From the NCBI GenBank assembly GCA_965224025.1, contig OZ245033.1, positions 3,744,001-3,808,000 on the forward strand: DNA of 64,000 bases, read 5' to 3'. The DNA comes from Candidatus Multivorans sp. Lineage in GTDB: Bacteria > Acidobacteriota > Thermoanaerobaculia > Multivoradales > Multivoraceae. Below the pieces are notes generated by a model, which was not told where the DNA came from, did no database searches, and saw only the letters and a program-made list of their open reading frames with translations. This document shows positions 12,574 through 31,846 of this stretch, piece after piece. Numbering within the stretch: the first letter of the stretch is position 1; the number at the start of each line of letters is the position of its first letter. The translations under genes and the position numbers were made by a program.

Positions 12574-12765
12574 TTCAGCTTGCCTCCAAAGAATGAAGCC
12601 GTCATCGTAGCAGCGGCTTCCAGGCCGTCCCGGGCAATCAACCGGGCGTCCCGAACTATGATGGCATGATCGAGCCGACGCGCAGCCCCGGACAACCGGC
12701 GCCCGCGCCACTCTGACGGTCAAGCTCTACGACCGCCAACGACCAACCGGAGACCTTCCCAACCC

Positions 12766-14019
12766 ATGAAGAAACAGCATCTCTGCGTGGCCGCCGCCGC
12801 GCTCGCTCTGGCCGCCTGCGCCGAACAGGACGGGCCCCTCCACCCCGGCGCCAACGACCACAAGACGTTGCAGGAGGCCCTGCTTGTCGCCGAGCCCGGT
12901 GCGGTCATCGAACTCGGCGCGGGCCGTTTCGAGCTCGACGCCACCCTGTCCCTCGACGTCGAGGGCGTGACGCTGCGCGGCCAGGGCATGGACGAGACGA
13001 TCCTGGACTTCGCCGGTCAGGCGCCGGGCACCGGCGGCGAGGGGGTCCTGGTGACGGCCGACGACTTCACGGTCGAGAACCTCGCGGTCGAAAACACGCG
13101 CGGCGACGGCATCAAGGTCGAGGGCACCACCGGCGCCGCCTTCCGCGGCGTGCGCATCGAGTGGACGAACGGACCGGACACGAACAACGGCGCCTACGGC
13201 CTCTACCCGGTCCAGGTGACGAACGTCCTGATCGAGGACAGCCGCGTTCGCGGCGCCTCGGACGCCGGCATCTACGTCGGCCAGTCCGCCAACGTCGTCG
13301 TCCGGCGCAACGAGGTCTGGGAGAACGTGGCCGGCATCGAGATCGAGAACACCACCGGCGCGGACGTCTACGAGAACCGGGCCCACGGCAACACCGGCGG
13401 CCTGCTCGTCTTCTCCCTGCCCGAGCTTCCGGTCAAGGACGGCCGCGACGCGCGCGTCTACGACAACGAGATCGCTGACAACAACCTGCCCAACTTCGGC
13501 AAGGAGGGAGCGATCGTATCCACGATTCCGGCCGGCTCGGGCGTCATCGTCATGGCCAGCGACAACGTCGAACTGTTCGGAAACCGGATCCACAACAACC
13601 AGAACTCGAACCTGGCGGTGATCTCGTACCTCTCCACCGGGCGCACCTACAACGACCCCGGCTACGACCCCTACACCGAAGGCGTCTACATCCACGACAA
13701 CGACTTCGTCGGCGGCGGGGAGAGCCCGAACGGCGCCTTCGCCGACGCGTTCGTCGCCCTCGCCGGAGGCGCCTTCCCGGACATCGTCTGGGACGGTGTC
13801 GTGAACCCCGACAAGCTGGTCGACGGCGCGGTTCCGGACGAACTCCGCCTCTACATCCAGAACAACGGGGACGCGGACTTCGTGAACCTTGATCTCGGAT
13901 CCGTGTTCGCGGGCGGTCAGCCGAACGTGACCACCGATCTCGACCCCTACCAGGGGGCGCTGCCGGCGGTTCCGCAGCCTGTGGATCTCGGCGTCGCGAC
14001 GGGCGCCGGCAGTCCCTGA
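12766..14019 (+). CDS. Parallel beta-helix repeat lipoprotein (TIGR03805-like)
   Basis: Lipobox LAAC; GAYGLYPV, GASDAGIYVGQS and NVAGIEIEN motifs. Confidence 0.85.
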   Translation: MKKQHLCVAAAALALAACAEQDGPLHPGANDHKTLQEALLVAEPGAVIELGAGRFELDATLSLDVEGVTLRGQGMDETILDFAGQAPGTGGEGVLVTADDFTVENLAVENTRGDGIKVEGTTGAAFRGVRIEWTNGPDTNNGAYGLYPVQVTNVLIEDSRVRGASDAGIYVGQSANVVVRRNEVWENVAGIEIENTTGADVYENRAHGNTGGLLVFSLPELPVKDGRDARVYDNEIADNNLPNFGKEGAIVSTIPAGSGVIVMASDNVELFGNRIHNNQNSNLAVISYLSTGRTYNDPGYDPYTEGVYIHDNDFVGGGESPNGAFADAFVALAGGAFPDIVWDGVVNPDKLVDGAVPDELRLYIQNNGDADFVNLDLGSVFAGGQPNVTTDLDPYQGALPAVPQPVDLGVATGAGSP

Positions 14020-15122
14020 TGAAGGCGCGGCTCGTACCGGCGGTCGCCCTGCTGGCGGCCTCCGGCTGTTCGAGCGGTGATTCTCCGACCGGAGGCGGCC
14101 CATTCGACCGCTATCCGCGGACGCTGTCGGCCTGGGAGCTCTTCGCGGGCGACGGTTCGACCCAGACGCCTGCCCCTGGGGTCGAACCGTACGACCTGAA
14201 CACGCCTCTCTTCTCCGACTACACGCTGAAGTTCCGCTTCGTCCGGCTCCCCACGTCCGCGGACGGCGCCCTTCAGCCCGCCCGGTACCGCGCGGCGGGA
14301 CCGTTCGAGTTTCCCGTTGGCACGATGATCGCCAAGACCTTCGCCTACCCCGCCGACCTCCGCGCTCCGACCGCGAACGTGCGGCTGCTCGAGACCCGGC
14401 TGCTCATTCACGAAGAAAACGGCTGGGTGGGCCTTCCCTACATCTGGAACGAGGAGCAGACCGAAGCGGAACTCGTGATCGTCGGCGGTCCGCTCGACGT
14501 CTCTTGGGTTGACGGCAGCGGCCGGACAGTCGAACACACTTACCGGGTGCCGAACACGAACCAGTGCAAGACCTGTCACCGCACGGACGGCGAGCACGTG
14601 CTGCCGATCGGGCCGCGCGCCGGCCAGTTGAACCGAGAGTTCGTCTATGCCGCCGGCGGCGGCGGGCCCGGACGCGCCGAGAATCAACTCGCCCGCTGGC
14701 AGCGCATCGGCTTCCTCGAGGGCGTCCCGACGCCGGCCGAGGCCCCCCGGGCGCCGGTCTGGAATGAGCCTTCGACCGGCAGCGTCGGCGAGCGCGCCCG
14801 CACCTGGCTCGACATCAACTGCGCGCACTGCCACAACCTCACGGGAAGCGGACGCACGTCGGGACTCGACCTGCGCGCGGCGCACGAGGACCGGACCCGG
14901 CTCGGCGTCTACAAGCATCCGGTCGCGGCCGGCCAGGGCACCGGCGACCGCCTCTACGGCGTCGTGCCCGGCCGTCCGGACGAATCGATCCTGGTCTACC
15001 GGCTCGAGTCGGTACACCCCGGCGTGATGATGCCGGAGCTCGGCCGCGGGCTCGTCGATGTCGAGGCCGTCGCCCTCATCCGCGAATGGATTCAGGGGAT
15101 GGCGGCCCGAACCGAAGCCTGA
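14019..15122 (+). CDS. SO2930-family diheme c-type cytochrome lipoprotein (TIGR03806-like)
   Basis: YDLNTPLFSDY, FPVGT..KTF and ETRLL motifs; two CxxCH (CKTCH, CAHCH); MMPELG. Coupled to the beta-helix gene. Confidence 0.85.
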   Translation: MKARLVPAVALLAASGCSSGDSPTGGGPFDRYPRTLSAWELFAGDGSTQTPAPGVEPYDLNTPLFSDYTLKFRFVRLPTSADGALQPARYRAAGPFEFPVGTMIAKTFAYPADLRAPTANVRLLETRLLIHEENGWVGLPYIWNEEQTEAELVIVGGPLDVSWVDGSGRTVEHTYRVPNTNQCKTCHRTDGEHVLPIGPRAGQLNREFVYAAGGGGPGRAENQLARWQRIGFLEGVPTPAEAPRAPVWNEPSTGSVGERARTWLDINCAHCHNLTGSGRTSGLDLRAAHEDRTRLGVYKHPVAAGQGTGDRLYGVVPGRPDESILVYRLESVHPGVMMPELGRGLVDVEAVALIREWIQGMAARTEA

Positions 15123-15194: not shown

Positions 15195-15851
15195 CTACTC
15201 CGCCAGGATCTGCCGCGTGCGGTGGAAGACCTCGTCGAGGCCAACCTCGTCCGAACCGTAGTACCCGCGGACGCCGCCGGCCCGGTCCACCAGAACCAGC
15301 CGCGCCGCGTGCGCCACGTCGACCAGTCCGCCGGCAAGGTCGATGCGCTCGCCCATGGGCAGGGCGAACCCGTCCACCACGACCGAGCGCACGTCCTGCC
15401 GATCGCCGGTCACCAGGCGCCAACGCTCCAGGTCGAGGCCGCGGCGCCCGGCGTAGTCCCGCAGACGTTCCGGCGTATCGTGTTCCGGATCGACCGAGAA
15501 GCTGACCAGCCGAACGCCCTCGACGCCCTCCTCCCGGTAGCGGCGTTCCAACCGGCTGACTTCCGCGGTCAGCCGGGGGCAGACCGTCGCGCAGCGCGTG
15601 AACACGAAGGAGGCAACGTAGACCTCGCCCGCAAGATCGCCGCTGCCGAAGGCATCGCCGTTCTGGTCCACGAGCCGCCACTCGGGCAACTGCCGCAGAA
15701 CCGGCGGCGGATCCGGCTCGATACGGAGCAGGGGCCGCAGCGCCGGGATGAGCACCACACCCGCGAGCGCCGCCAGAAACCAGGGATTCAGGAACCGGCG
15801 ACGGGGAGGAATCCCCGCTTCGTCCGACCTCTTCGAACCCTCTCCCGACAC
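15195..15851 (-). CDS. SCO1/SenC-family copper chaperone
   Basis: N-terminal TM, FTRCATVCP (CxxxC), SVDPEHDTP and conserved His (VAHAAR). Confidence 0.9.
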   Translation of the reverse strand: MSGEGSKRSDEAGIPPRRRFLNPWFLAALAGVVLIPALRPLLRIEPDPPPVLRQLPEWRLVDQNGDAFGSGDLAGEVYVASFVFTRCATVCPRLTAEVSRLERRYREEGVEGVRLVSFSVDPEHDTPERLRDYAGRRGLDLERWRLVTGDRQDVRSVVVDGFALPMGERIDLAGGLVDVAHAARLVLVDRAGGVRGYYGSDEVGLDEVFHRTRQILAE

Positions 15852-15878
15852 GCCCCGACACTATCTCGGCTCGATCCT

Positions 15879-15907
15879 TTGACCGCCTCGGTAGCACGCT
15901 ATACACT
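15879..15907 (+). promoter_or_regulatory. Sigma70-type promoter for the act operon
   Basis: TTGACC-N17-TACACT upstream of the actA TTG start. Confidence 0.6.
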
Positions 15908-15961
15908 CCGCGCGATCTCGGATCGCGCAGGGTTTCCTACCCTGCTGCGGGGTTCGGAGTT

Positions 15962-16609
15962 TTGGCTCAGATCTTCCCCAAGTGGACTCTCAAGGCGCCG
16001 CTGTACTTGGCGGCCGCTCTGCCGATCGCGGGGGCCGCGGCGGTGGGCGCCGTCTGGTACTACGGTTCGCCCGAGTACACCGACGTCGGTTACCGGCCGG
16101 CTCAACCCGTGCCCTACAGCCACAAGCTCCACGTCGGCGAGCTCGGCCTCGACTGCCGGTACTGCCACGCCTCGGTCGAGGAGTCGGCGGTGTCCAGCAT
16201 TCCGCCCACCCAGGTGTGCATGAACTGCCACCACGTCGCGGCGCGCGAGAGCGAACTCCTGGCGCCGATCCGCAAGAGCGCGGCGCAGGGCCGGCCGATG
16301 CGCTGGGTGCGCGTTCACAACCTGCCCGACTACGCGTTCTTCAATCACAGCGTCCATGTCGGCGCCGGCGTCGGCTGCAGATCCTGCCACGGTCCCGTCC
16401 ATGAGATGGAGGTCGTGACCCAGGTGGAGCCCCTGAGCATGAGCTGGTGCCTCGACTGCCACCGCGACCCTGGCCCGAATCTGCGGCCGCTCGACGCCGT
16501 CACCGACATGGAGTGGACGCCGACCGGCGATCACGAAGCCTTCGCAGAGCAGGCGATTGCGGAACGGGCGCTGGCGCCGCCCGAGGACTGTACGGGGTGC
16601 CATCGATGA
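15962..16609 (+). CDS. actA: Alternative complex III pentaheme cytochrome c subunit ActA
   Basis: Five CxxCH (CRYCH, CMNCH, CRSCH, CLDCH, CTGCH); QPVPYSHKLH and W.RVHNLPD..FFNHS.H motifs; N-terminal TM. Confidence 0.9.
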   Translation: MAQIFPKWTLKAPLYLAAALPIAGAAAVGAVWYYGSPEYTDVGYRPAQPVPYSHKLHVGELGLDCRYCHASVEESAVSSIPPTQVCMNCHHVAARESELLAPIRKSAAQGRPMRWVRVHNLPDYAFFNHSVHVGAGVGCRSCHGPVHEMEVVTQVEPLSMSWCLDCHRDPGPNLRPLDAVTDMEWTPTGDHEAFAEQAIAERALAPPEDCTGCHR

Positions 16610-19600
16610 CCGCGGGCAACGGCAACCGGCCTGAGAAGACGTACTGGCGCAGCCTGGAACAGGTGCAGGGCGATTCCCGGGCCACCGATTTCCTGCACCG
16701 GGAGTTCCCGGAAGGCGCTTCCGAGGCGCCGCCCGAACTGCTCCAGGAGGGCTTGAGCCGGCGCAGCGTCCTCGCGATGCTCGGCTCCACCGCCTCCCTG
16801 GCCGGCCTGGCCGGATGCGACGTCATCCGCCGTCCGGTGGAACACATCGTTCCCTACGTCGACGCGCCGGAAGGCATGGTTCCCGGAATCCCGATGGCGT
16901 ACGCCACCACGATGCGGTTCGGCAACCGGGCCCTCGGCGTGGTCGTGGAGAGCCATGAAGGCAGGCCGACCAAGGTCGAGGGGAACGAACTCCACCCGTC
17001 TTCCGGCGGCGCCTCTGGAGTCTGGGCGCAGTCCTCCATCCTCGACCTGTACGACCCGGACCGCTCCAAGACGGTGCGATTCGGTGACCAGGCCTCGTCC
17101 TGGGACGACTTCGTCGCCGCCTGGACCGAAGGCGACCTCGCTCCCGCCGCCGACGGCGCCGGTCTGGCGATCCTCGCCGAGCCGTCCTCGTCGCCGACTC
17201 TGCTCCGGCTCAAGACGGCTCTGCTCGAACGCCATCCCCAGGCGCGCTGGGTGAGCTGGCAACCAGTGAGCGAAGAGAACGCCGACCGCGGTCTCGAATC
17301 GGTGGCCGGCAATCACTACCACGCCCTCTACCACCTGGAGCGGACGCAGGTTCTGCTCTCCCTCGACTCCGACCTCCTGGGCACGGAGGGCGACAGCGTC
17401 CGCAACCTGCGCGGCTACGCCAACGCCCGGCGCGTGGGCGACAACGGTTCCTCCGCGATGCTCCGGCACTACGCCGTCGACGGCGTCCACTCGGTCACGT
17501 CCGCCAACGCGGACCACCGGCTGCGGGTACAGAGTGGCCGTGTCGCCGCGTTCGTGGCCCAACTGGGACAGGCCCTCGCCGCACACGGCCTGGAAGTGCC
17601 GCTGGACGGCGGTGCGCCGGCCGCGGACATCGACGACGCCTGGGTGCAAGCGGTGGCGAAGGACCTGGCCGGGCACCGCGGCGCCGGCCTGATCGTCGCG
17701 GGCGACCGCCAGCCGGCGGAGGTCCACGCGGCGGTCTACGCCCTGAACTCGGCGCTCGGCAACGTCGGCGCTACGGTGACCTGCCACCAGACGCCGGACA
17801 GCGGCAGTTCGAGCGACGCCGACCTGGCCGCCCTGGTGGCGGCGATGAACGAAGGCGCAGTCGACCGCCTTGTTATCCTGGAGGCGAATCCGGTCTACAG
17901 CGCTCCCGCCGACCTCGACTTCGCCGCCGCGCTCGAGAACATGAACAGCGCCGGCGCGGTCATCCACGTCAGCACCCACCGTGACGAGACGAGCCGCCAC
18001 GCGCGTTGGCACGTGCCGCTCGCCCACTACCTCGAGAGCTGGGGCGACGCCCGCGCCACCGACGGCACGGCCAGCGTCGTCCAGCCCCTGATCGAGCCCC
18101 TCTACGGCGCCAGGAGCGCGATCGAGGTGCTGGCGCTGGCGGCCCTGGGCGAGGCGCGGGATGGTCGCGACCTGGTCCGCGAGACCTGGTCCGGGCTGCT
18201 CGGCCTGCCGCTTGACGAGAGTGCCGAGGGCGAAGAGGCGGCGATGGTACCGGCGGATGCCGAGTCCGGCGGCGAGGCTGCGGAAGGAGACGGAGGCGAG
18301 GAGGCGGACGCCCCGCCCGTCGATCCCATGTCGCTGCCGTTTCCGGTCGCGCTCTCCGAGTTCGAAGTCGCCTGGCGCCGGGTGCTCCATGACGGCGTGC
18401 AGGAAGGCAGCGCCGCGCCCGCGGCCGAGCTGGCAACCGTTACTCCCGAAGACTGCGCCACCGCGGTGCGGGCCGCCGGCGACGCCGCCAGGGCGGTCGC
18501 CCTTGGCGAGGAACTGGAGGTCGTCTTCCGCTGCTCCGCGGCTCTGTACGACGGACGCTTCGCGAACAACGGCTGGCTCCAGGAACTCCCCGATCCGATC
18601 ACCAAGCTGACCTGGGACAACGCGGCCCTGATCAGCCCGGCCACCGCAGCGGCCCTCGGCCTGGAGAACGAGGACCTGGTCACCGTCGCGTGCGGCGAAC
18701 GGGAACTCGAGTTGCCGGTGTGGCAGGTGCCCGGCCAGGCCGACCACAGCGTGACGATCGATCTCGGCTACGGTCGTGACTTTGGTGGCCGGATCGCCAG
18801 CAGCGCCAACGACGAGGATCACAACCCGGGCAGGAACGCCTATCTGCTGCGCACCTCGGACGCCCTGCACGTCGGCCGCTGCGCGCTCAAGGCCAGCGGC
18901 GGTTCGTACCCCCTGGCGCAGACCCAGGACCATCACTCGATGGAAGGTCGGCCGCTGGTCAAGGAAGCGGACCTCGACTATTTCGAGGAGCACCCCGACT
19001 TCGCCACCGCCCACAGCGAGAAGCCGCACGAGAACTCGATGTGGGACGAGTGGACCTACCGTGACTCGCCCCAGTGGGGCATGACGATCGATCTGAACGC
19101 CTGTGTGGGCTGCAACGCCTGCGTCATCGCCTGCCAGAGCGAGAACAACATTCCGATCGTCGGCAAGGAACAGGTGATGGAAGGCCGGGAGATGCACTGG
19201 CTGCGCATCGACCGCTACTTCTCCTCCGAGGGCGAACGCGACGGCCTCGTCGACGGTCTGCCTCACGACCCACAGACCAACTTCCAGCCGGTGCCCTGCA
19301 TGCAGTGCGAGAACGCGCCCTGCGAGCAGGTCTGCCCCGTCTCCGCCACCGTCCACGATGACGAAGGGCTGAACGCGATGGTCTACAACCGCTGCATCGG
19401 TACCCGCTACTGCTCGAACAACTGCCCGTACAAGGTCCGGCGATTCAACTACTTCAACTTCACCAAGGACACCCCCGAGGTGATGCACCTGGGCAAGAAC
19501 CCGGACGTCACGGTCCGTTCTCGCGGGGTGATGGAGAAGTGCACCTACTGCGTGCAGCGGATCAGCCGCGCCAAGGTCGACGCCAAGCGGGACGGCCGGC

Positions 19601-19872
19601 CTCTGGCCGACGGCGATGTCGTCACGGCCTGCCAGCAGGCCTGCCCTGCCGACGCGATCCGCTTCGGCGACATCACGGACGGGGCGAGCCAGGTCAGCGA
19701 GGCGAAAGCGGGTCCTCGCAACTACAACCTGCTCGACGATCTGCACACCAAGCCGCGGACCACCTACCTGGCGAAGATCCGGCATCCGAACCGGGACATC
19801 GTTCCCGCCCCGCCGCCGGTCGAGGACCACGGTGCAGCCGACGACGCCGGCCACGGCGGGGACGCGCACTGA
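16606..19872 (+). CDS. actB: Alternative complex III subunit ActB (Tat-exported molybdopterin-fold plus 4Fe-4S domain)
   Basis: YWRSL...EFPEGA and SRRSVL Tat-variant N-terminus; EGRPTKVEGN..HP; four Fe-S motifs (CVGCNAC, CMQCENAPC, CIGTRYC, CTYC). ATGA overlap with actA. Confidence 0.9.
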   Translation: MTAGNGNRPEKTYWRSLEQVQGDSRATDFLHREFPEGASEAPPELLQEGLSRRSVLAMLGSTASLAGLAGCDVIRRPVEHIVPYVDAPEGMVPGIPMAYATTMRFGNRALGVVVESHEGRPTKVEGNELHPSSGGASGVWAQSSILDLYDPDRSKTVRFGDQASSWDDFVAAWTEGDLAPAADGAGLAILAEPSSSPTLLRLKTALLERHPQARWVSWQPVSEENADRGLESVAGNHYHALYHLERTQVLLSLDSDLLGTEGDSVRNLRGYANARRVGDNGSSAMLRHYAVDGVHSVTSANADHRLRVQSGRVAAFVAQLGQALAAHGLEVPLDGGAPAADIDDAWVQAVAKDLAGHRGAGLIVAGDRQPAEVHAAVYALNSALGNVGATVTCHQTPDSGSSSDADLAALVAAMNEGAVDRLVILEANPVYSAPADLDFAAALENMNSAGAVIHVSTHRDETSRHARWHVPLAHYLESWGDARATDGTASVVQPLIEPLYGARSAIEVLALAALGEARDGRDLVRETWSGLLGLPLDESAEGEEAAMVPADAESGGEAAEGDGGEEADAPPVDPMSLPFPVALSEFEVAWRRVLHDGVQEGSAAPAAELATVTPEDCATAVRAAGDAARAVALGEELEVVFRCSAALYDGRFANNGWLQELPDPITKLTWDNAALISPATAAALGLENEDLVTVACGERELELPVWQVPGQADHSVTIDLGYGRDFGGRIASSANDEDHNPGRNAYLLRTSDALHVGRCALKASGGSYPLAQTQDHHSMEGRPLVKEADLDYFEEHPDFATAHSEKPHENSMWDEWTYRDSPQWGMTIDLNACVGCNACVIACQSENNIPIVGKEQVMEGREMHWLRIDRYFSSEGERDGLVDGLPHDPQTNFQPVPCMQCENAPCEQVCPVSATVHDDEGLNAMVYNRCIGTRYCSNNCPYKVRRFNYFNFTKDTPEVMHLGKNPDVTVRSRGVMEKCTYCVQRISRAKVDAKRDGRPLADGDVVTACQQACPADAIRFGDITDGASQVSEAKAGPRNYNLLDDLHTKPRTTYLAKIRHPNRDIVPAPPPVEDHGAADDAGHGGDAH

Positions 19873-20486
19873 TGCGCGAGGCGATGAGATTCCGGAAGGG
19901 GCACCGGCGGCTCGCGGGCGCCGCCTTCGCCGCGGCTCTCCTCCTGCTCGGTTGCCGGGGCATGCCCTCGCCGTATCCACCGATCCACCTGAATCCGAAC
20001 ATGGACTACCAGGAGCGCTACGATCCCCAGGAGGCGAGCGGCTTCTTCTACGACGGGATGGCGATGCGCCAGCCGGTCGCCGGCACCGTGGCGCGCGGTC
20101 AGCTCGACATCGACCACCGCCTGCTGTTCGGCCGCGACGACGAGGGTTACTTTCTGGAAGGTTCGCCGATCCCGGCCACCGACGAAGTGCTGGCCCGCGG
20201 ACAGAACCGCTACGCGATCTACTGCCAGCCGTGCCATGACGAGCGCGGCACCGGACAGGGCATCCTGTTCGAACGGGCCAGCACACCCACAGCGTCGCTT
20301 CACGACGAACGGATCGCCGGCTACAACGATGGCCGCCTCTACGACGTCATCACGAACGGTTCCGGGCTGATGGCGGGCTACCGCTACCCGCTCGAGACCG
20401 AGGATCGCTGGGCGGTCGTGGCCTACGTCCGCGAGTTGCAGGAAGAACGCCGCACGATGCAGGCGGAGCGGGAAGCCCGCCAGTAA
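19872..20486 (+). CDS. actE: Alternative complex III monoheme lipoprotein ActE
   Basis: Lipobox LLGC, NMDYQ..Y.PQ, PVAGTVARG, YCQPCH, and GLMAGY with DRWAVVAYVR. Confidence 0.82.
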   Translation: MREAMRFRKGHRRLAGAAFAAALLLLGCRGMPSPYPPIHLNPNMDYQERYDPQEASGFFYDGMAMRQPVAGTVARGQLDIDHRLLFGRDDEGYFLEGSPIPATDEVLARGQNRYAIYCQPCHDERGTGQGILFERASTPTASLHDERIAGYNDGRLYDVITNGSGLMAGYRYPLETEDRWAVVAYVRELQEERRTMQAEREARQ

Positions 20487-20508
20487 CGCCCTCAGGGGTG
20501 GAGAGCCA

Positions 20509-22440
20509 GTGACCAGAAACAAGATCCTCTTCGGTATCGGCGTTCTCGCCTTCGTGGCGGTGATCGCCACGGTGCGCCTGGGCGGTTTCCTGGTGGACAA
20601 CGAGTACCGCCAGCCGGAGCGTCAGGTGGCGGCCGAGGAAGCGGTGGGCGAGGCCGAACCGACCCCGCGTCAGCAGGGCATCGCCGACGAGCAGGCCGCC
20701 GACGAAGCGGAGGCGAAGGCCAGGCCCTACGTGGAGGCGGAGTACCGCACGGTTCCGTTCGTCGGCAGCCGGGTCACGGTGTGGGTGCTGGCGCAGCTTC
20801 ACCTGCTGTTCGCCGCCTTCGTGCTGGCGGTGCCGCTGTTCGCCTTCATCATCGAGTTCGTCGGCTACGTCACCAAGGAAGAGCGCTACGACAAGCTGGC
20901 CTACGAGTTCACGAAGCTCTTGAGCGTCTCGTTCTCGATGACCGCCACCTTCGGCGCGTTCCTGACCTTCGGGCTGATCATCCTGTACCCGAAGTTCACG
21001 AACTACCTGATGCACATCTTCTCGCCGACCTTCCTGCCCTACGTGCTGCTGTTCTTCCTGGAAGCGCTCTTCCTCTACAGCTACTACTACGGCTGGGGCA
21101 AGTTCGGGCCGAAGATGCACCTGTTCCTCGGTTTCATGCTGAACGTGGTGGGCACCGCGATCATGTTCATCGCCAATGCCTGGTTGACCTTCATGATGTC
21201 GCCCGGCAAGAGGGAGGACGTCGACGGAGACGGCATCCCGGACTTCGTCTCCGCCGTCTCGGAGAGCGGCGCTCTGCTCAGCCTCCGGGACGCTTTCTTC
21301 AACTTCACCTGGATGCCGATCAACATCCACCGGATCATCGCCAACGTCGCCTTCGGCGGCTCGATCGCCGCCGCGTACGCCGCCTTCCGCTATCTGCAGG
21401 CGAAGACCGACGAGGAAAAGGCCCACTTCGACTGGATGGGCTACATCGGCAACTTCGTCGCCATCATCGCCTTCCTGCCGCTGCCGTTCGCCGGCTACTA
21501 CCTGGCAAGCGAGATCTACGCCTTCAGCCAGACCCTGGGCATCCAGATGATGGGCGGCACCTTCTCCTGGCTCTTCGTCCTCCAGGCGGCGCTGATCGGC
21601 AACCTGTTCCTGGGCGCGAACTACTACCTGTGGCTGGGAATGGGCCGCATCGAAGGCACCGCCCACTTCCAGAAATTCATCAAGTATCTGCTGATCGCGA
21701 TCGCGCTCTGCTTCGCCGTCTGGGCCACGCCGCGCTATGCGATCTCGTCCGTCTCCGAGATCGCCGCCATGGGCGGCGGCAGCCACCCGCAGCTCCGCTA
21801 TCTGGGGCAGATGTCGGCCAAGAACACGGCGGTCAACATCCTGATCCTCTCGACCTACATGAGCTTCCTGCTCTACCGGCGAACCGGCAAGCAGTCGACC
21901 CACCTTCATCGGCAGCTCCTGACCCGCGCCCAGGTCGTGGTCTTCGCCGCGACCGCGTCGCTGGTCGTCTTCTTCGGCGTGTACGGCTACTACGTCGACG
22001 CCGCGACGCGAGTCCGACTCGCCATACCCCAGGTCTACTCCGTGCTCGCCGCGATGGTCGTGATCACCATCATCGACCTGCCTCTGTACCGAAACGCCAG
22101 GCGGCCCGGCGAGACGCAATGGGGCAAGATGCCCGCGATCTCGCAGTACGCACTCATCTTCATCGCACTGAGCTTCACCTGGCTGATGGGCCTGATGGGA
22201 TACGTCCGCTCCGGCCTGCGACAGGAATGGCACGTGTACGGTGTAGTCCTCGATACCTCCCCGGACGCCCATACACCCACCCTCGGGTTCGCCACCCAGG
22301 TCGTTTCGGTCACCGTTCTCATCTTCTTCGGCCTGCTCGGCGTCGTCTTCTGGCTCAGCAGCCTCGCCGGCAAGAAGCCCTGGCAGCCGAAGACGGCCAC
22401 GGAAGCCGACGGCCGGCTCGAGGAGGGGCAATCGGCATGA
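20509..22440 (+). CDS. Cytochrome bd subunit I (CydA)-like membrane protein, bd-like oxidase type
   Basis: Polytopic. QLHLLFAAF, FFLEA, ANAW..FMMSP, IHRIIAN and RQEWHVYG parallel CydA motifs; no recognisable Q-loop. Confidence 0.8.
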   Translation: MTRNKILFGIGVLAFVAVIATVRLGGFLVDNEYRQPERQVAAEEAVGEAEPTPRQQGIADEQAADEAEAKARPYVEAEYRTVPFVGSRVTVWVLAQLHLLFAAFVLAVPLFAFIIEFVGYVTKEERYDKLAYEFTKLLSVSFSMTATFGAFLTFGLIILYPKFTNYLMHIFSPTFLPYVLLFFLEALFLYSYYYGWGKFGPKMHLFLGFMLNVVGTAIMFIANAWLTFMMSPGKREDVDGDGIPDFVSAVSESGALLSLRDAFFNFTWMPINIHRIIANVAFGGSIAAAYAAFRYLQAKTDEEKAHFDWMGYIGNFVAIIAFLPLPFAGYYLASEIYAFSQTLGIQMMGGTFSWLFVLQAALIGNLFLGANYYLWLGMGRIEGTAHFQKFIKYLLIAIALCFAVWATPRYAISSVSEIAAMGGGSHPQLRYLGQMSAKNTAVNILILSTYMSFLLYRRTGKQSTHLHRQLLTRAQVVVFAATASLVVFFGVYGYYVDAATRVRLAIPQVYSVLAAMVVITIIDLPLYRNARRPGETQWGKMPAISQYALIFIALSFTWLMGLMGYVRSGLRQEWHVYGVVLDTSPDAHTPTLGFATQVVSVTVLIFFGLLGVVFWLSSLAGKKPWQPKTATEADGRLEEGQSA

Positions 22441-22922
22441 AGCTGAACGTCCCGATGCCGCTCCGGCTGGTCCTCCTGGTCCTGGGCACCACGGCCTTCT
22501 ACATGTACCTGGGCCAGATCGTGCCCCAGAAGGAGGTACACCCTCCACCGCCGGTGCTGATCAACGCCGAGATGACGACCGAGGATTTGATCGCGGTCGG
22601 CAGCGAGCTCGCCAACGGCAAGGGGCAATGCCTCGCAGCCTGCCACTCGATCGGGTCCAGCGGACCAAGCCGCTATCCGGATCTGGGTGGCATCGGACAG
22701 CGCGCGGCGACGCGGCTCGAGGGGCTGTCCGATGTCGAGTATCTGGCGCAGTCTCTCTACGAACCGGGAAGCTTCGTCGTGCCTGGCTACGAGGACGGTA
22801 TGCAGCCCATGAACGAGCCGCCCATCAGTCTCTCCGATGACGAGATCAAGGCCGTGATCGCCTGGCTGCAGAGCCTGGGCGGAACGCCGTCCGTGACCTT
22901 GGACACCGACCTCGGTTACTAA
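22437..22922 (+). CDS. Membrane-anchored monoheme cytochrome c with atypical CX3CH motif
   Basis: N-terminal TM, GKGQCLAACH, PDL.G, EYLAQSLYEP...VPGY...M. GAGG RBS and ATGA overlap. Confidence 0.8.
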   Translation: MKLNVPMPLRLVLLVLGTTAFYMYLGQIVPQKEVHPPPPVLINAEMTTEDLIAVGSELANGKGQCLAACHSIGSSGPSRYPDLGGIGQRAATRLEGLSDVEYLAQSLYEPGSFVVPGYEDGMQPMNEPPISLSDDEIKAVIAWLQSLGGTPSVTLDTDLGY

Positions 22923-23047
22923 GGCTCAACTTTCAGAAACTATTGAAGCAATGAGGAACAACCGTCAACTCGCCTCTGTTCTGAGGAGTGACTGCTCCCT
23001 CGCGGGTGGGCATCCGGCCCCCGAACCTTCACGGAACTGACTCGATC

Positions 23048-23866
23048 ATGTGGGGACTCAACTTACCGGTTCTTCTGGGCCTGGCCGCGGTCGCCGGTGT
23101 ACTGGCCTGGCGCCGGGTAGACACACTCACCTGGCTGCTCTTCGCCTGGGGCGCGCTGTGGGCCTTCTTCAAGTTCGGATTCGCGGTGCCGATCCCGCAG
23201 TCGGTGGCCACGATCTACCTGGGGATCGCCACCCTGGCACTCGTCTGCTACGCCTCGTCGAGCCGCGAGCGCCTGGTCGAGACGGTCGCGCCGATCAAAC
23301 GGCTCATCCTCGAACCGCGGCGCCTGCCGCTTCTGGCCGCGGTACTGGTGGCGCTGCCCGCCCTGGCCGCCTACAACGTCTACGCGGACATGAGTGTCCC
23401 GCTCGAGGCGCCCGGATTCGGGCGCGAGGTGCATCCGCCGCCGCCAACTGAGATCACGGTCCACGACGAGGCGATCGACATGGCGACCGCGGACAATCCC
23501 TACACCCACCTCCACGAAGACGATCCCGAAGCGTACGAGGAGCACCTGGAGAACGGTCGCCGCGTCTACTACCAGAACTGCTTCTGGTGCCACGGCGACG
23601 GCATGGGCGGCGACGGCATGTTCGCCCACGGCCTGAACCCGGTGCCCAGCGACTTCAACGACGTCGGCACGCTGCCGATTCTGCAGTCCTCCTTCGTCCA
23701 CTGGCGGATCGCCCTCGGCGGTCCCGGTCTCCCGGAAGGCGGCACGCCCTGGGACAGCGCCATGCCGGCATGGGAGCTGTTCCTGACCACCGAGGAGATG
23801 TGGGACGTCAACCTGTTCATCTACGACTTCAACGGCTTCGAGCCGCGCGCGCTGGGGCAGCACTGA
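23048..23866 (+). CDS. Membrane-anchored monoheme cytochrome c (multi-TM N-terminus)
   Basis: About four TMs, then NCFWCHG and SAMPAW (Met ligand). Alternative start 22988. Confidence 0.8.
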   Translation: MWGLNLPVLLGLAAVAGVLAWRRVDTLTWLLFAWGALWAFFKFGFAVPIPQSVATIYLGIATLALVCYASSSRERLVETVAPIKRLILEPRRLPLLAAVLVALPALAAYNVYADMSVPLEAPGFGREVHPPPPTEITVHDEAIDMATADNPYTHLHEDDPEAYEEHLENGRRVYYQNCFWCHGDGMGGDGMFAHGLNPVPSDFNDVGTLPILQSSFVHWRIALGGPGLPEGGTPWDSAMPAWELFLTTEEMWDVNLFIYDFNGFEPRALGQH

Positions 23867-25614
23867 TGGCTGCACGCATCGACCCGGCCGCCGTTGCGGC
23901 TGCTGCCGCACTCCTGGCGGCGCCTCTGGCCGCCCAGGTCGACCTCGGCACCGAAGAGCAGCGAGCCGCCGGCAAGGTCGTCTACGACAGGTACTGCGGC
24001 CAGTGCCACGGCGACGAGGGCGACGGCAACGGCTACGCCACCCCGCGGGTCAAGCCCAAGCCGCGCGACTTCACGTCCGGCAAGTACAAGTTCCGCACCA
24101 CGCCGAACGGGATGCTCCCCACGGACGACGACCTGCGCCGCGCGATCGAAATCGGCCTCCCCTACACCTCGATGCCGGGCTGGCCCAACCTGACGAGCAC
24201 CGAAATCGACAACGTCATCTACTACATCAAGTCCTTCTCGCCCGACTTCGAGAACCCGGACCGCTACGGTGAACCGCTCGACATTCCCCGGCCGCTCGAG
24301 TCCACCGAGGAGTCGATCGCCCGCGGGCGCGTGGTCTACGAAGAGCAGGGCTGCGCCGCCTGTCACGGCGAGGTCGGCCGCGGCGACGGCACCTCGGCGC
24401 CGACCCTGGTCAACGACAAGAACGAGCCCATCAAGGCCGCGGACCTGACCCAGCGCTGGACCTACCGAGGCGGCGCGACCAAGGAGGACATCTACCGGAC
24501 CTTCTCCACCGGGCTCAACGGCACACCGATGCCGTCGTACGCGGACTCGCTCGAAGTAGAGGACCGCCAACACCTGGTGAACTACGTCTACTCCCTGGGC
24601 GACGGCGACGACCCCGGCTACGGCACGCTGATCACCGCCGCATGGACCGAGGAGGCGATCGACCTGCAGGACGCGGAAGCGCTCGACGCCCTGTTCCAGG
24701 CCGCGCCGATGACCCGCTTCCCACTGATCGGGCAGATCACCGAGCCGGGGCGGAACTTCTATCCCTCGGTCACGTCGATCGAAGCCCAGGCCGTCTACAA
24801 CCGCGGCGAGATCGCCTTCCGGGTGCGCTGGAACGATCTTCGTGCCGACAACACGGGCAGGAGCAACCCCGCCCTCGAAGTGCCGACGTGGGACGAGGAC
24901 AACGGCTTCGGTGGCGACAGCGGTGGCGACGACGGCGGCTTCTTCGGTGTCGAGGAGGACTCCGGAGATGACGGCGGCTTCTTCGGCGTCGAGACCGCGG
25001 ACGACAGTGCTGACGACTTCTTCGGCGGCGCCGACGGTTTCTTCGGCGGCGGCGACGACGCCGGCAGCGACGGCGCCGAATTCTCGGATGCCGTAGCGCT
25101 GCAGTTCCCGGCCTCGCTCGCGCCCGAAGACCAGCCCCAACTCAAGCCTTACTTCCTGTTCGGCGACAGCCAGAACCCGGTCGACCTCTGGTTCGTCAAC
25201 CTGACCTACGGAGTCGCGGACACCTTCCGCGGCCGCGGCAGCGGCGCGATCGAGCCGACCGAGGCCGACATCGTCGAAGCCGTGACCTCCTACGACCAGG
25301 GCGAGTGGACGGTGACCTACAAGCGGCGGCGCGGGTCGCGTGCCGGCGTCAGCTTCGCCGAGCAGCAGTACACGCCGATCGCCTTCAGCGTGTGGGACGG
25401 CTTCAACCGGGAACGCGGCAACAAGCGCGCCCTGTCGTCCTGGTTCTACGTCTACACCGAACCCAGCGTGAAGCAGGCAGCGACCATCCCGGTGCTGCGC
25501 GCCGCCTTCATCGTGCTCTTGATCGAGTTGCTCGTCGTGTTCCTGGTGCGCCGCCGAGCGAGCCAGCAGCAGGAGGGCGCCGCCCTCACCGGCACCGAAG
25601 CCACCGCGGTCTGA
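23866..25614 (+). CDS. Diheme cytochrome c fused to an ethylbenzene dehydrogenase gamma-like (EB_dh/DOMON) domain, with C-terminal TM
   Basis: CGQCH and CAACH, KPRDFTSG.YKFRTTP, GTPMPS; FSDAVALQFP and IAFSVWDG...ERGNK typical of EB_dh. Confidence 0.8.
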   Translation: MAARIDPAAVAAAAALLAAPLAAQVDLGTEEQRAAGKVVYDRYCGQCHGDEGDGNGYATPRVKPKPRDFTSGKYKFRTTPNGMLPTDDDLRRAIEIGLPYTSMPGWPNLTSTEIDNVIYYIKSFSPDFENPDRYGEPLDIPRPLESTEESIARGRVVYEEQGCAACHGEVGRGDGTSAPTLVNDKNEPIKAADLTQRWTYRGGATKEDIYRTFSTGLNGTPMPSYADSLEVEDRQHLVNYVYSLGDGDDPGYGTLITAAWTEEAIDLQDAEALDALFQAAPMTRFPLIGQITEPGRNFYPSVTSIEAQAVYNRGEIAFRVRWNDLRADNTGRSNPALEVPTWDEDNGFGGDSGGDDGGFFGVEEDSGDDGGFFGVETADDSADDFFGGADGFFGGGDDAGSDGAEFSDAVALQFPASLAPEDQPQLKPYFLFGDSQNPVDLWFVNLTYGVADTFRGRGSGAIEPTEADIVEAVTSYDQGEWTVTYKRRRGSRAGVSFAEQQYTPIAFSVWDGFNRERGNKRALSSWFYVYTEPSVKQAATIPVLRAAFIVLLIELLVVFLVRRRASQQQEGAALTGTEATAV

Positions 25615-25686
25615 TTACCGCTCCGTTCACATACCGCTACGTCCCATCTCTCGGAACCGACACTCCGTCAACAGAAGAGACACCCC

Positions 25687-27852
25687 ATGTACAAGACGAT
25701 CTACGTCCCGCTCGACAACTCGGACTACTCCAACCAGGCGATCGCCTCCGCGGTCGAACTGGGCCGGAAGTTCGACTCCAGGATGGTCGGCTGCCACGTC
25801 TACGCGGCCAGCATGCACGACTACCGCTTCAAGCAGATGGAGTACACGCTGCCCGAGGAGTACCTCGAGGAGACGGAACTCGACCGCCAGCGGAAGATCC
25901 ACGACTCCCTGATCACGATGGGGCTGGAGCTCATCTCGGAGAGCTACCTCGAGCCGATGAAGGCGGTCTGCGACGAAGCCGACCTCGAGTTCGAGCCGAA
26001 GATGATGGACGGCAAGCACCACGTCGAGATCGTGCGCGACATCCGCGAGTCGGGTTACGACCTGACCGTGATCGGCGTGATGGGAATCGGCCGCGTCCGC
26101 GACACGCAGATCGGCTCGGTCTGCGAGCGGGTCGCCCGGACCGTCGACAAGGATGTGCTCGTGATCAAGCGACTGCCGGCAAGGACCAACGGAAAGCCGA
26201 CGAACGGCAACGGCAACCACGCGGAAGCCGACGCCGACGGCCGCGACACGATGCTGGTCGGCGTCGACGGTTCGCCCCAGTCGTTCGGCGCCCTGATGAC
26301 CGCCATCGACCTGGCGAAGCGGTTCGGCAAGAAGGTCGAGGCGATCTCGGTCTACGACCCGTACCTCCACTACTCCGTGTTCAAGGGCGTGGTCAACGTG
26401 CTGACCGAGCGCGCCGCGAAGATCTTCCGCTTCGAGGAGCAGAACCAGCTTCACGAAGAGATCATCGACACCGGTCTGGCGCAGATCTACCAGTCGCACC
26501 TGGATGTCGCCGAGACGATGGCAACCGAGATCGGCGTCGACCTGACGAAGACCCTGCTCGACGGCAAGGCGTTCCAGAAGGTCCTCGATCACGCCCGGAA
26601 GATCGACCCCTGGATGCTCGTGATCGGCCGCGTCGGCGTGCATAGCGACGAGAGCGAGACCGGCCTCGGCAGCAACGCCGAGAACCTGCTCCGTTCCTGC
26701 CCCTGCGACCTCCTGCTGACCACCCGTCTCGAGTACCCGGAACTCGACGTCAAGGCCGAAGAGAGCATCCGCTGGACGCCCGAGGCCGAGGAGCGCTTCG
26801 AGCGCGTCCCCGAGCAGGTGCGCGGCATCGCCCGCACCGCCCTCTACCGGCTGGCGGTCGAGCAGGGCCACAGCGTGATCTCGAGCGACGTGCTCGACGA
26901 GGCGATGGACCGCTACATGCCCAAGTACACCGCTCGCGAGACGGAGGCGCTCGCCGAGCAGGTCGCCCTGCAGCTCGCGCGCAGCCGTCCCACTTTCATC
27001 TGCCGCAAGTGCGGCGTGACCTCGGCCGAGCCGGATCCGGTCCGCTGCGGCGTCTGCGGCAGTGAGTCGTTCGAGCAGATCACGGAGGAGATGCTGGACC
27101 GGATCGCCGAGATGGAGGGCGGTCTCGAGGTCGAGACGACCTATGACGGCCGCAAGCTCAAGTGGACCGCGGACGCCCGTCTGGCGCTCAAGACGATCGA
27201 GGACGCCTACCGGCGCCGCCGCGCCAAGGCGCGGATCGAGAAGAAGGCGCGGATGAGCAAACTGCCCACCGTCACCTTCGAGTTCGCGCGCGCCTTGATC
27301 GAAGACGAGACCGGCGAGCCGGTGACGATCGAGGCCCGCGAGCAGGCGGCCGACGCGAACGGCAACGACGCGCCCGAGGCGGCGTCCGAGGAGCGCAAGC
27401 TGATCGCCCGCGACGACGACCGCGTGCCGCTGCTCTCGACCTACGAGTGGTCGGGCGAGGCCGTCGAGCGCATTCTCCGGGTTCCCGCCGGCTTCATGAG
27501 GGACCGGACCCAGGAGCGCGTCGAGCTGGTGGCCCGTGAGAAGCACGTCTCGGAGATCGGGATCAAGACGGTCGAAGAGGGCATCGCGCTCGGCCGCGAG
27601 CTGATGGAGCAGATGATCGCGGCCTACGAGATCGGCAAGGGCGAAGGAACTCAGGCGAGCGCAGTCGCCGAGGCAGAGTCGAAGGCCGCGACCGCTGCGG
27701 GCAGATGCCCCTTCTCCGCTCTCGCCGAAGCCGGCGCCGGTGACGCCCAGGTCGAGGCAGCGAAGGACGCGAAGGCCGGCGCCTACCTGAACGAGGTCGG
27801 CCTGATGTCGGCACTCGACGAGAAGCGCAAGGCCGGCGAACCGGAAGCCTGA
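25687..27852 (+). CDS. Tandem universal stress protein domains fused to three PCP_red domains and a CxxC-CxxC knuckle
   Basis: IYVPLDNS and VGVDGS USP starts, GS..E USP ends; W(T/S).(E/D)A PCP_red repeats; CRKC...CGVC. Confidence 0.8.
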   Translation: MYKTIYVPLDNSDYSNQAIASAVELGRKFDSRMVGCHVYAASMHDYRFKQMEYTLPEEYLEETELDRQRKIHDSLITMGLELISESYLEPMKAVCDEADLEFEPKMMDGKHHVEIVRDIRESGYDLTVIGVMGIGRVRDTQIGSVCERVARTVDKDVLVIKRLPARTNGKPTNGNGNHAEADADGRDTMLVGVDGSPQSFGALMTAIDLAKRFGKKVEAISVYDPYLHYSVFKGVVNVLTERAAKIFRFEEQNQLHEEIIDTGLAQIYQSHLDVAETMATEIGVDLTKTLLDGKAFQKVLDHARKIDPWMLVIGRVGVHSDESETGLGSNAENLLRSCPCDLLLTTRLEYPELDVKAEESIRWTPEAEERFERVPEQVRGIARTALYRLAVEQGHSVISSDVLDEAMDRYMPKYTARETEALAEQVALQLARSRPTFICRKCGVTSAEPDPVRCGVCGSESFEQITEEMLDRIAEMEGGLEVETTYDGRKLKWTADARLALKTIEDAYRRRRAKARIEKKARMSKLPTVTFEFARALIEDETGEPVTIEAREQAADANGNDAPEAASEERKLIARDDDRVPLLSTYEWSGEAVERILRVPAGFMRDRTQERVELVAREKHVSEIGIKTVEEGIALGRELMEQMIAAYEIGKGEGTQASAVAEAESKAATAAGRCPFSALAEAGAGDAQVEAAKDAKAGAYLNEVGLMSALDEKRKAGEPEA

Positions 27853-27911
27853 GTTCCGCTTCTCCGGCGGCAGACCGCCGGCACGGCCCGCTCGAACCAC
27901 TGGGGGCGAAC

Positions 27912-28480
27912 ATGGGCAGACCCAAGGACATCGGCGTCGTCGATCTGATGCTGGAAATCCCAACCGGCGACCCCAACATCCGCGCCGCCTCCGCCGCGCC
28001 GTGCCTTGCGCATCCGCAGGCGCCGATCGACGACAAGCGCTTCTACCCCATCTACGCCAAGTGCGTCGAGCTCGACATACCCATCAACATGCTGGTCGGC
28101 GTGCCCGGTCCGCGCGTGCCCTACAAGTGCCAGTACCCCGGCCTGCTCGACGAAGTCGCTTGGTTCTTCCCGGACTCCGCGTCGTCATGCGCCACGGCGG
28201 CGATCCATGGACCGACCTGTGCGTCAAGCTGTTGCTCAAGTGGCCCAACCTGTACTACTCGACGACGGCCTGGGCGCCCAAGCACTACCCGCGCGACGTG
28301 CTCGAGTTCGCGAACAAGCGAGGCCCGAACAAGCTCCTCTACGCCGGCTACTTCCCCGGCCTGTCGTACGAGCGCATCTTCACGGAAATGGACGACCTGC
28401 CGCTCCAAGAGCACGTCTGGCCGAAGTTCCTGCGCGAGAACGCGGCCGCCGTGTTCAAGCTGGACGACCTGCTGGGCTAG
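27912..28480 (+). pseudogene. Amidohydrolase_2-family gene with internal deletion and frameshift
   Basis: FYPIYAKCVELDIP..GVPGPR in one frame continues as LRVVMRHG...WPNLYY.T.AWAPKHYP in another; shift at ~28175; much shorter than the family. Confidence 0.75.
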
Positions 28481-28598
28481 TACGTTTCGGCCATGCTGAT
28501 TCTCGCGCTGCCGCGCCTGCCGGAGCAGGCGCCGACCGGCGCGCCCCCCGCTCCGGCCGCGCTCGGGGCGCTTGCCGGTCCACGGTCCGAGTAGGCCG

Positions 28599-31260: not shown

Positions 31261-31282
31261 TTCCGAACGACAGAGATCAAGG

Positions 31283-31810
31283 ATGAAGTTCCTCTGCGTA
31301 CCCTGCGACGAGCAGATGAAGCTGAAGCACGCCCTGGGACCTGATGGCGGTTCCGTCGCCCTGGTCTATGCCTGCCCCACCTGTTCCGCCGAGATGGCGA
31401 TGATGACGAATCCGCACGAGACCCAGGTGGTTGGATCGCTCGGCGTACGGATCGGCCCCGAGACGGGCGACGAAGCCGCGGCGACGTCCTCGAAGTGTCC
31501 CTTCACGGGCATGCTGGCGGAGATGGGCATGTCGACCTCCGCGACCAACTCACAGCCTGAAAGTCGCGAGTCCGGAGATCCCGCGCATCTTGCCGGCCGG
31601 AATCGAGACGGCGGGCACGGCGCCGCGGTCAACGGAGAACCGGGAGGCATTCCCTGGACCGCCGAAGCCCGCGAGCGGCTGGCGAACATCCCCGACATCG
31701 TGCGCACTTCGGCGGTCGCGGGCATCGAGAAGTTCGCTCTCGACCATGGCTACGATGAGGTCGACGCGGCGGTCCTGGAGCGCGCCCGCTCCTTCTTCGG
31801 CATCGCCTGA
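31283..31810 (+). CDS. Cys-motif protein with C-terminal PCP_red domain
   Basis: CVPC...CPTC N-terminus, KCPF, and WTAEARERLANIP..VR......IEKFA PCP_red. Confidence 0.75.
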   Translation: MKFLCVPCDEQMKLKHALGPDGGSVALVYACPTCSAEMAMMTNPHETQVVGSLGVRIGPETGDEAAATSSKCPFTGMLAEMGMSTSATNSQPESRESGDPAHLAGRNRDGGHGAAVNGEPGGIPWTAEARERLANIPDIVRTSAVAGIEKFALDHGYDEVDAAVLERARSFFGIA

Positions 31811-31846
31811 ACCTTCCGGCAGAACATCGCGCACAACGCCCTCGCC

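Follow-up and report, generated by a model that had tools for sequence, protein, structure and literature searches.

The operon and its missing partners

We analyzed a window of 64,000 nucleotides (G000:C1:3744001-3808000) from the genome of Candidatus Multivorans sp., a member of a sponge-dwelling genus, whose assembly comprises 5.14 Mb in three contigs and is 100% complete. The window holds an operon that joins the genes for three subunits of alternative complex III (ACIII), ActA, ActB and ActE, to those for a cytochrome bd-like (CydA-like) protein and three membrane cytochromes c (c1, c2 and c3), with a divergent sco gene in front (Table 1). A preliminary description had listed this gene content from the letters of the sequence, and all of these genes are indeed present, with four of the six operon junctions overlapping (ATGA or TGATG), a gap of 22 nt between actE and the CydA-like gene, and a gap of at least 65 nt between c1 and c2. 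The 3' boundary of the extent then assigned (15195-25614) did not stand, as the conserved unit reaches beyond 25614 to 33214 and takes in usp, mrp, a PCP_red protein gene and a radical SAM gene. The window ActB matches R. marinus ActB (6f0k_B) over its full length (E 1.5e-265), its B2 part carries 15 Fe-S cysteines at 833-1013 that provide ligands for three 4Fe-4S clusters and one 3Fe-4S cluster, and actE is 34-48% identical to the actE of canonical actABCDEF operons.

Table 1. Positions of the features discussed, numbered within the window unless a contig (C1) is given
Feature	Position	Strand	Evidence and remarks
sco, SCO1/SenC copper chaperone	15195-15851	-	divergent; PF02630 E 1.4e-24
actA, ACIII pentahaem cytochrome c	15962-16609	+	five CxxCH; single N-terminal transmembrane segment 14-32; ActA tree
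actB, fused B1 (molybdopterin-enzyme-like) and B2, TAT-variant signal	16606-19872	+	TIGR04519 above cut-off
actE, monohaem lipoprotein cytochrome c	19872-20486	+	one CxxCH (CQPCH); LLGC lipobox-like; tree
CydA-like, probable OR-N2-type cytochrome bd-like subunit	20509-22440	+	about 14 transmembrane segments; no CydB partner; PF01654 on residues 87-337 only
c1, membrane-anchored monohaem cytochrome c, TO_1 subunit	22437-22922	+	CX3CH; transmembrane anchor; homologue in Nitrospira-type loci
c2, multi-transmembrane monohaem cytochrome c, TO_1 subunit	22988-23866	+	homologue after c1 in Nitrospira-type loci
c3, dihaem cytochrome c (two CxxCH) fused to EB_dh domain	23866-25614	+	
Usp-Usp-PCP_red protein	25687-27852	+	conserved operon member; after c3 in most loci
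Mrp/ApbC Fe-S carrier ATPase	30388-31260 (start estimated from homologue starts)	+	PF10609 E 2.7e-49; synteny
Small CxxC and PCP_red protein	31283-31810 (start estimated from homologue starts)	+	synteny
AhbD/NirJ-like radical SAM/SPASM protein, PCP_red tail	31847-33214	+	TIGR04545 291 bits, below the cut-off of 500
actC (487 aa), actD, actF	G000 C1:3103173-3106466		

Scanning of 54 open reading frames in the window yielded no match to NrfD, ActD, CydB or COX1, in line with the preliminary description, and genome-wide searches for NrfD, ActD and COX1 found their matches outside the window. These searches located an operon of actC, actD and actF with the genes of an aa3 oxidase at C1:3103173-3111600, about 660 kb from the window. 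After actF it encodes a C-x2-H-x2-M cupredoxin-like protein, CoxI, CoxIII, CoxIV, a small membrane protein and a CoxII without haem c. By tblastn, this operon contains no actA, actB or actE, and the sole full-length actB and the sole actE of the genome both lie in the window. Hence, the act genes do not form a single cluster in this genome but are split, with ActA/B/E of the window and the distant ActC/D/F adding up to exactly one full ACIII set. A single act cluster is usual but not required, because a split has been published for Chloroflexus.

Host ActC is intact: it matches R. marinus ActC (6f0k_C) at E 3e-204 and retains W82, H97, R119, E122, H139, S164, D169, H247 and D253 (R. marinus numbering), including residues (H139, S164, D169 and D253) that have been assigned to the quinol site (PMC5928083, PMC8076601); host ActF matches 6f0k_F at E 7.6e-94. 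The earlier proposal that the CydA-like protein stands in place of ActC/D/F is thus not supported, given an actC-actD-actF cluster that lacks actA/B/E, retains the quinol-site residues, and would complete a canonical ACIII, a finding that the preliminary description itself had named as a refutation. A search with PF02322 for CydB, which the preliminary description had called for, found nothing in the complete genome. Since the missing membrane subunits of ACIII are encoded elsewhere in the genome, the CydA-like protein is, judging from the sequences, most probably a terminal oxidase of the Nitrospira type to which ACIII passes its electrons, and not a replacement part of it.

Two further NrfD-type proteins were rejected as partners of the window ActA/B/E. 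A second, Qrc/ACIII-like operon at C1:1831300-1837100 (L009 9300-15130, minus strand) encodes its own short multihaem A, separate B1 and B2, NrfD and ActD; actE and actF were not found in it, and its NrfD occurs in all 36 congeners searched. In the third case, NrfD is part of a fusion with an Fe-S domain and has a molybdoenzyme as its neighbor. About 18 kb from actC, a Rieske-cytochrome b-multihaem cytochrome c operon (PF13447, HAO-like, 551 aa; G000:C1:3081982-3085227, L182 7983-11228, minus strand) forms a second complex-III-type module in the host. Two paralogous C-x2-H-x2-M cupredoxin-like proteins flank actC-D-F (L008 8206-9018, minus strand, and 12598-13404, plus strand), and in every locus read, one such paralogue stands ahead of the haem-c-free aa3 genes.

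The two halves co-occur, are sometimes joined, and are lost together

In a draw of 60 related genomes (36 congeners and 24 of other families), the CydA-like gene occurred in all 36 congeners and, at full length, in nine of the 24 others. On the same contig, shortly before the CydA-like gene, actB was present in 35 of the 36 congeners and in all nine carriers from other families. Host-type ActC (at least 69% identity) followed the same distribution: 35/36 congeners, 9/9 carriers from other families, and none of the 15 genomes lacking the CydA-like gene, where the best ActC reached 66% and belonged to a canonical operon. Most of the nine additionally hold a separate canonical actABCDEF-cox operon. 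The exceptional congener, G029, also lacks coxI, and its assembly is in 340 contigs. In six genomes (G045, G046, G048, G050, G055 and G315), the two half-operons point toward each other inside a single island, an arrangement also seen in G212, where the ABE end is cut off, and in the frameshifted G381; these islands span 25-45 kb.

Across a draw of 301 Acidobacteriota genomes, 22 carried the CydA-like gene. Among the 14 carriers outside the host's order, six have actABE at the CydA-like gene, five of them with a CDF operon; in the sixth, G249, the contig stops after the radical SAM gene and coxI was not found. One carrier (G212) is cut. At the radical SAM gene of G249 (L167, C17:2116-16601), an insertion of about 14 kb sits in the 5' part, with a short duplicated start. 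Two of the 14 carriers (G107 and G226), as well as G377, have a joined actA-B-E-C-D-F operon and a CydA-like cluster without actABE, located elsewhere in G107 and G226. Two more (G136 and G160) have actA-B-E-c1-C-D-F joined, and the CydA-like gene was not found there. Five of the 14 carriers (G161, G196, G276, G314 and G325) have neither ABE at the CydA-like cluster nor a host-type ActC. In three of these (G196, G276 and G325), the CydA-like cluster and aa3 are kept while ABE and CDF are both gone, with the aa3 operon now beginning at the cupredoxin gene; G314 and G387 are similar. A different order, actA-B-E-cox-actC-D-F with the oxidase genes between the halves, occurs in L051 (G091) and L055 (G155).

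Conserved synteny, the lack of which the preliminary description had listed as a refutation, is present across Acidobacteriota, and the order is far beyond chance: among 80 loci from a species collection, 72 have actE as the immediate upstream neighbor of the CydA-like gene, five lack it, and three are cut off at this point. We searched the genomes of 50 of 63 such loci for ActC; 44 of these have the actE adjacency, and 37 of the 44 also contain a host-type ActC, 35 by identity (at least 68%) and two (G386 and G381) by inspection. Of the seven negative loci, five stop inside the island, and most ActC-negative genomes are either cut in the island or also without the aa3 operon. Among the listed pieces of one metatranscriptome, which has 0.07 of words in common, none bridged actE and the CydA-like gene; as this set consists of short contigs, for the most part no more than 90-95% alike, we draw no inference on co-transcription from it.

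Phylogenetic trees grouped both halves in the same manner. Host ActC falls into a clade of 21 rows (IQ-TREE support 95/86; 42 rows in total) together with all of the stand-alone ActC proteins and the ActC of G107, G226, G136, G160, G155 and G091. Window ActB falls into a clade of 16 rows (FastTree support 100; 30 of 41 rows used, frameshifted or partial ones being excluded) with all CydA-linked ActB proteins and those of G107, G226, G136 and G160. The joined copies tested, from the latter four genomes, thus nest within the host's clades in both trees, and several subclades agree between ActB and ActC.

The CydA-like protein probably belongs to a Nitrospira-type oxidase module

Most named near relatives of the CydA-like protein (87-95% identity) carry the title Ca. 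Multivorans or Thermoanaerobaculia (Acidobacteriota). Further out, close homologues of a representative at 48% are named Nitrospira or Nitrospiraceae; with one of these, P0382, the window protein shares 44% identity. Among 80 metagenome loci of P0382, homologues of c1 were found in 73 and of c2 in 66, the c1 homologue (32-37%) standing directly after the Nitrospira-type OR-N2 gene and the c2 homologue following. The long loci read, in order, CydA-like paralogue, Rieske protein, cytochrome b, orthologue, c1, c2, EB_dh protein, and dihaem cytochrome c. Of 22 conserved positions compared, the window protein has all 22 in common with the downstream Nitrospira-type paralogue and 18-19 with the upstream one; the acidobacterial CydA-like copies without neighboring ABE match at 21-22 of these positions. 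Identity to the downstream paralogue was 43-46%, and to its upstream counterpart 31-36% over a similar length; the labels OR-N2 and OR-N1 follow from gene order, and a bd-like tree leaves the placement of the window protein at the N2/N1 fork undecided. The host has a single CydA-like gene, and thus no OR-N1 paralogue.

The locus order agrees with the TO_1 layout described for Manganitrophus (10.1101/2021.11.15.468770), with the cluster of a bd-like protein with 14 transmembrane segments in Nitrospina (PMC3578206), and with OR-N2 as presented in 10.1101/2021.01.16.426971 and PMC12342949, as far as the available text of these sources goes. By identity, shared positions and gene order, the CydA-like gene and its cytochromes are probably orthologous to the TO_1 (OR-N2) module of Nitrospira and Manganitrophus. 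Orthology and gene order likewise support the second option of the preliminary description, namely that this is a putative cytochrome c-fed terminal reductase related to bd-like modules of Nitrospira. The further remark that the host is not a nitrifier is consistent with our finding no NXR/Nar-type alpha subunit at the TIGR03479 cut-off, ammonia oxidation not having been searched for.

An AlphaFold 2 model of the CydA-like protein from a 150-row alignment (pLDDT 89.5; a single-sequence model was unusable, at pLDDT 44.5) matched the folds of CydA (Z 32-34), CydB (Z 24.6), ActF (Z 22-23.5) and PsrC (Z 16). The protein has 14 hydrophobic segments. As regards a quinol-binding Q-loop, the PF01654 match ends at position 238 of the 418 of the profile, and the model contains extra helices. 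H98, the equivalent of His19, aligns to the first histidine of solved CydA structures and is kept in 143 of 145 rows, and E185, the equivalent of E107, to which G. thermodenitrificans E108 aligns, in 137 of 146. Unlike a canonical quinol-oxidizing cytochrome bd (qOR), the host system has no CydB partner and does not retain both proton-channel glutamates (E99/E107). Several OR-N homologues of 689-889 aa (P0122, P0123, P0139 and P0161) carry one or two CxxCH motifs and are probable cytochrome c fusions, which would fit c1 as a subunit.

A probable split complex with two proposed exits

Given the gene content, the complementarity of the two operons, the conserved residues, and the co-occurrence, co-loss, fusion and trees, we consider it likely that a split ACIII hands electrons from quinol to both a cytochrome-c-fed bd-like oxidase and an aa3 oxidase. 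The window operon would supply the periplasmic electron wire ActA/B/E together with a TO_1/OR-N2 oxidase, its cytochromes, and maturation proteins, and the second operon would supply the membrane arm ActC/ActD/ActF with a cupredoxin-like protein and the aa3 oxidase. ActA/B/E would assemble in trans on ActC/D/F into an ordinary ACIII, in which quinol would be oxidized at ActC and electrons would pass through the 3Fe-4S cluster of ActB and the haems of ActA to ActE, the route established for R. marinus (PMC5928083). From there, gene content suggests two exits: one via c3, c2 and c1 to the haem site of OR-N2, and one via the cupredoxin to aa3, with O2 presumably reduced at both. In Flavobacterium, the electron path has been proposed to fork at ActA/ActE (PMC8552683). 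As each operon encodes half of ACIII and one oxidase, neither branch would work unless both operons were expressed.

In Nitrospira, Nitrospina and manganese oxidizers, OR-N2/TO_1 is presumed to act as the main terminal oxidase. In Acidobacteriota it usually lies beside the ACIII wire, in the slot that Rieske protein and cytochrome b occupy in Nitrospira-type loci. The presence of the latter upstream of the Nitrospira-type OR-N2 suggests that TO_1 is generally fed by a complex III, and the presence of ACIII in that slot argues for OR-N2 as a general acceptor downstream of quinol oxidation, not a nitrite-specific part. The layout also points to a candidate donor for OR-N2, either ActE or the c-type chain. 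By analogy with ACIII-caa3, an ACIII-OR-N2 supercomplex is conceivable and likelier than the direct docking of ActA/B/E on OR-N2 discussed below, although we regard it as doubtful. For genome annotation, the finding carries a warning that an "incomplete ACIII" in Acidobacteriota often represents two halves of one complex.

Several observations weigh against a split ACIII that feeds both oxidases. Seven of the 44 surveyed genomes, as well as G249 and G029, have ABE at the CydA-like gene and no intact host-type ActC was found in them, among which G384 is unexplained, and the 35 ActC calls made by identity class (at least 68%) had their neighborhood read in few cases. Two genomes (G155 and G091) pair a canonical-type ABE with a host-type CDF, so the pairing is not exclusive. 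Linkage alone, within a single island, would also yield congruent clades, and the correlation of distances over 13 genomes was weak and poorly discriminating (rho 0.33 for ActB-ActC, 0.08 for ActB-CydA-like, and 0.48 for ActC-CydA-like). The CydA-like protein has Tyr178 at the E99 (G. thermodenitrificans E101) proton-channel position and, in a weak part of the alignment, no glutamate at the E445 position, and O2 reduction is unproven for any OR-N enzyme according to the available text of PMC10839748. Its likeness to ActF and PsrC is one to a fold that could carry an Fe-S subunit. Finally, G399 retains an open actABE beside a decayed actC, present as a 32% remnant, with actD and actF gone. Of 116 near-invariant ActB columns, 12 are broken in this genome, more than in any other of the 39 rows, as compared to 3 of 302 for the CydA-like protein, a decay that, in this one case, matches what a dependence of ActB on ActC predicts.

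Three other explanations were weighed. The first, which we consider unlikely, holds that the adjacency is regulatory or historical only, with ACIII serving aa3 alone and actABE doing no more than using the same promoter and maturation genes as a TO_1 that works independently. That either module occurs alone (G136 and G160 versus G196 and G325), that joined ABECDF operons adjoin aa3 and not TO_1, and that the Rieske-cytochrome b-multihaem operon of the host could feed TO_1 would all fit this. It is at odds with the persistence of the neighborhood, with actB and then the CydA-like gene following each other on a single contig in nearly all congeners and actE adjacent in most loci, and with a complex III filling the same upstream slot in Nitrospira-type loci.

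Less probable still is that ACIII is split as proposed while OR-N2 reduces another acceptor (for example, NO) or channels electrons from the periplasm into ACIII, from where they would run in reverse to quinone. According to the available text of PMC10839748, no measurement of OR-N activity exists, neither E99 nor E445 of canonical bd is retained, and TO_1 of Manganitrophus was proposed to accept periplasmic electrons (10.1101/2021.11.15.468770). Yet H98 and E185 are kept in nearly all rows, a lithotrophic donor is not evident, as no NXR-class enzyme of the host reaches the family cut-off, and the EB_dh domain lacks the methionine of EbdC (0/51 loci), which weakens the case for a haem-b entry port.

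Least probable, and in our view very unlikely, is that ActA/B/E form a common wire docking on either NrfD-fold platform, ActC/F for quinol entry or the OR-N2 bd-like protein, the latter used instead of or alternating with ActC/D/F and yielding a compact complex with a quinone or O2 site of its own. The folds of bd and NrfD proteins (two four-helix bundles, as in ActC/ActF) are alike and docking of ActB on the CydA-like protein is therefore structurally possible, the adjacency of actE fits it, an ACIII-like role for bd-like proteins, if quinone-binding, was raised in PMC3578206, and ABE is present in G399 and in a few fragmented genomes where no intact host-type ActC was found. Against it, an intact cognate ActC/D/F is present, co-occurring, co-lost and sometimes joined, the CydA-like protein stays unchanged without ABE, ABE stays with CDF where the CydA-like gene was not found (G136 and G160), and ActB decays alongside ActC in G399 despite an intact CydA-like protein. 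If true, such dual docking would be a direct Fe-S-to-bd-like complex without precedent, in which CydA and NrfD folds serve as interchangeable docking modules.

Cytochromes, maturation genes and flanking regions

The CX3CH motif of c1 is a minority form among its 73 homologues, which have one CX2CH in 56 cases, one CX3CH in nine, and two motifs in six. The dihaem and EB_dh parts of c3, fused here, are two separate genes in Nitrospira-type loci. The c3 residue aligned to EbdC Met108, which we take to be a haem-b ligand, is phenylalanine, and methionine occurs there in none of the 51 loci, so the EB_dh domain of c3 may be haem-free. About 12 kb before the window (G000:C1:3731021-3732061), a dihaem cytochrome is encoded on its own and shares 31% identity with the N-terminal part of c3.

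Downstream of c3, a PCP_red tail is common to three proteins encoded in 25687-33214, the Usp fusion, the small CxxC protein and the AhbD-like radical SAM protein, and the PCP_red proteins and Mrp make up a conserved maturation-like block. This block was not detected beside the Nitrospira-type gene, except for a weak radical SAM match. Mrp/ApbC is a probable factor for ActB maturation, and the radical SAM protein, encoded by the last gene of the operon in many relatives, is a candidate haem-modifying enzyme. In the host, three unrelated genes separate usp from mrp; the region 27912-30391 holds an amidohydrolase fragment across two frames, a GNAT protein and an unassigned open reading frame of 288 aa, and the gap between usp and mrp varies among relatives.

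On the upstream side, the position of sco is constant in the genus and variable beyond it, and its product probably serves the CuA site of the aa3 oxidase encoded elsewhere. Adjoining sco, a pair of genes at 12766-15122 for a beta-helix protein (TIGR03805) and an SO2930-family cytochrome (TIGR03806) is kept in the genus only.

Comparison with known systems

We found no published description of the reciprocal layout, ABE with OR-N2 and CDF with aa3, although closed supplements, subscription papers (Refojo 2010/2013, Yu & Leadbetter 2020), or the OR-N classification paper, in its Figure 1 or supplementary text, could hold one; the available parts of PMC9386147 and 10.1101/2020.07.02.185504 contain nothing specific bearing on it. 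The division of ACIII into ABE and CDF modules is itself standard (PMC3534657). Like the ACIII of R. marinus (6F0K; PMC5928083) with its caa3 oxidase, the host has all six subunits ActA-F, the haem and Fe-S motifs, the quinol residues of ActC, and an A-type oxidase operon linked to actC/D/F. Unlike R. marinus, it splits ABE and CDF into two operons some 660 kb apart, has a CoxII without haem c and a cupredoxin-like gene before cox, and encodes the wire together with a bd-like oxidase.

The closest precedent for the split is the respiratory ACIII (Cr) operon of Chloroflexus aurantiacus, described as actABEG only, without actCDF, for which completion in trans by ActCDF from another operon was proposed (PMC9316378). 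However, Chloroflexus would borrow CDF from a complete operon and swap two ABE sets, whereas the host has a dedicated CDF-only operon and places ABE beside an OR-N2 module. With the TO_1/OR-N2 systems described for Nitrospira, Nitrospina, Kuenenia and Ca. Manganitrophus, the host shares a protein of about 14 transmembrane segments at 44% identity, the lack of CydB, and the order OR-N2, c1, c2, then EB_dh and dihaem c, with a complex III upstream. It departs from them in having ACIII upstream instead of Rieske protein and cytochrome b, no OR-N1 paralogue, a fusion of dihaem c and EB_dh, and no NXR-class enzyme above cut-off. The actABCDE genes with OR-N5 CydAA' reported for Nitrospirales and TO_3 of Manganitrophus (PMC12342949; 10.1101/2021.11.15.468770) resemble the host in that ACIII genes lie directly upstream of a bd-like oxidase, but these operons keep actC and actD, split actB, and encode two OR-N5 (clade V) subunits. 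Judged against the available text of these sources, completion of ABE in trans and ACIII beside bd-like oxidases (OR-N5/TO_3) were already published, and what appears new is the reciprocal layout; on present evidence, the host thus does not present a new class of respiratory complex, but a new arrangement of known ones.

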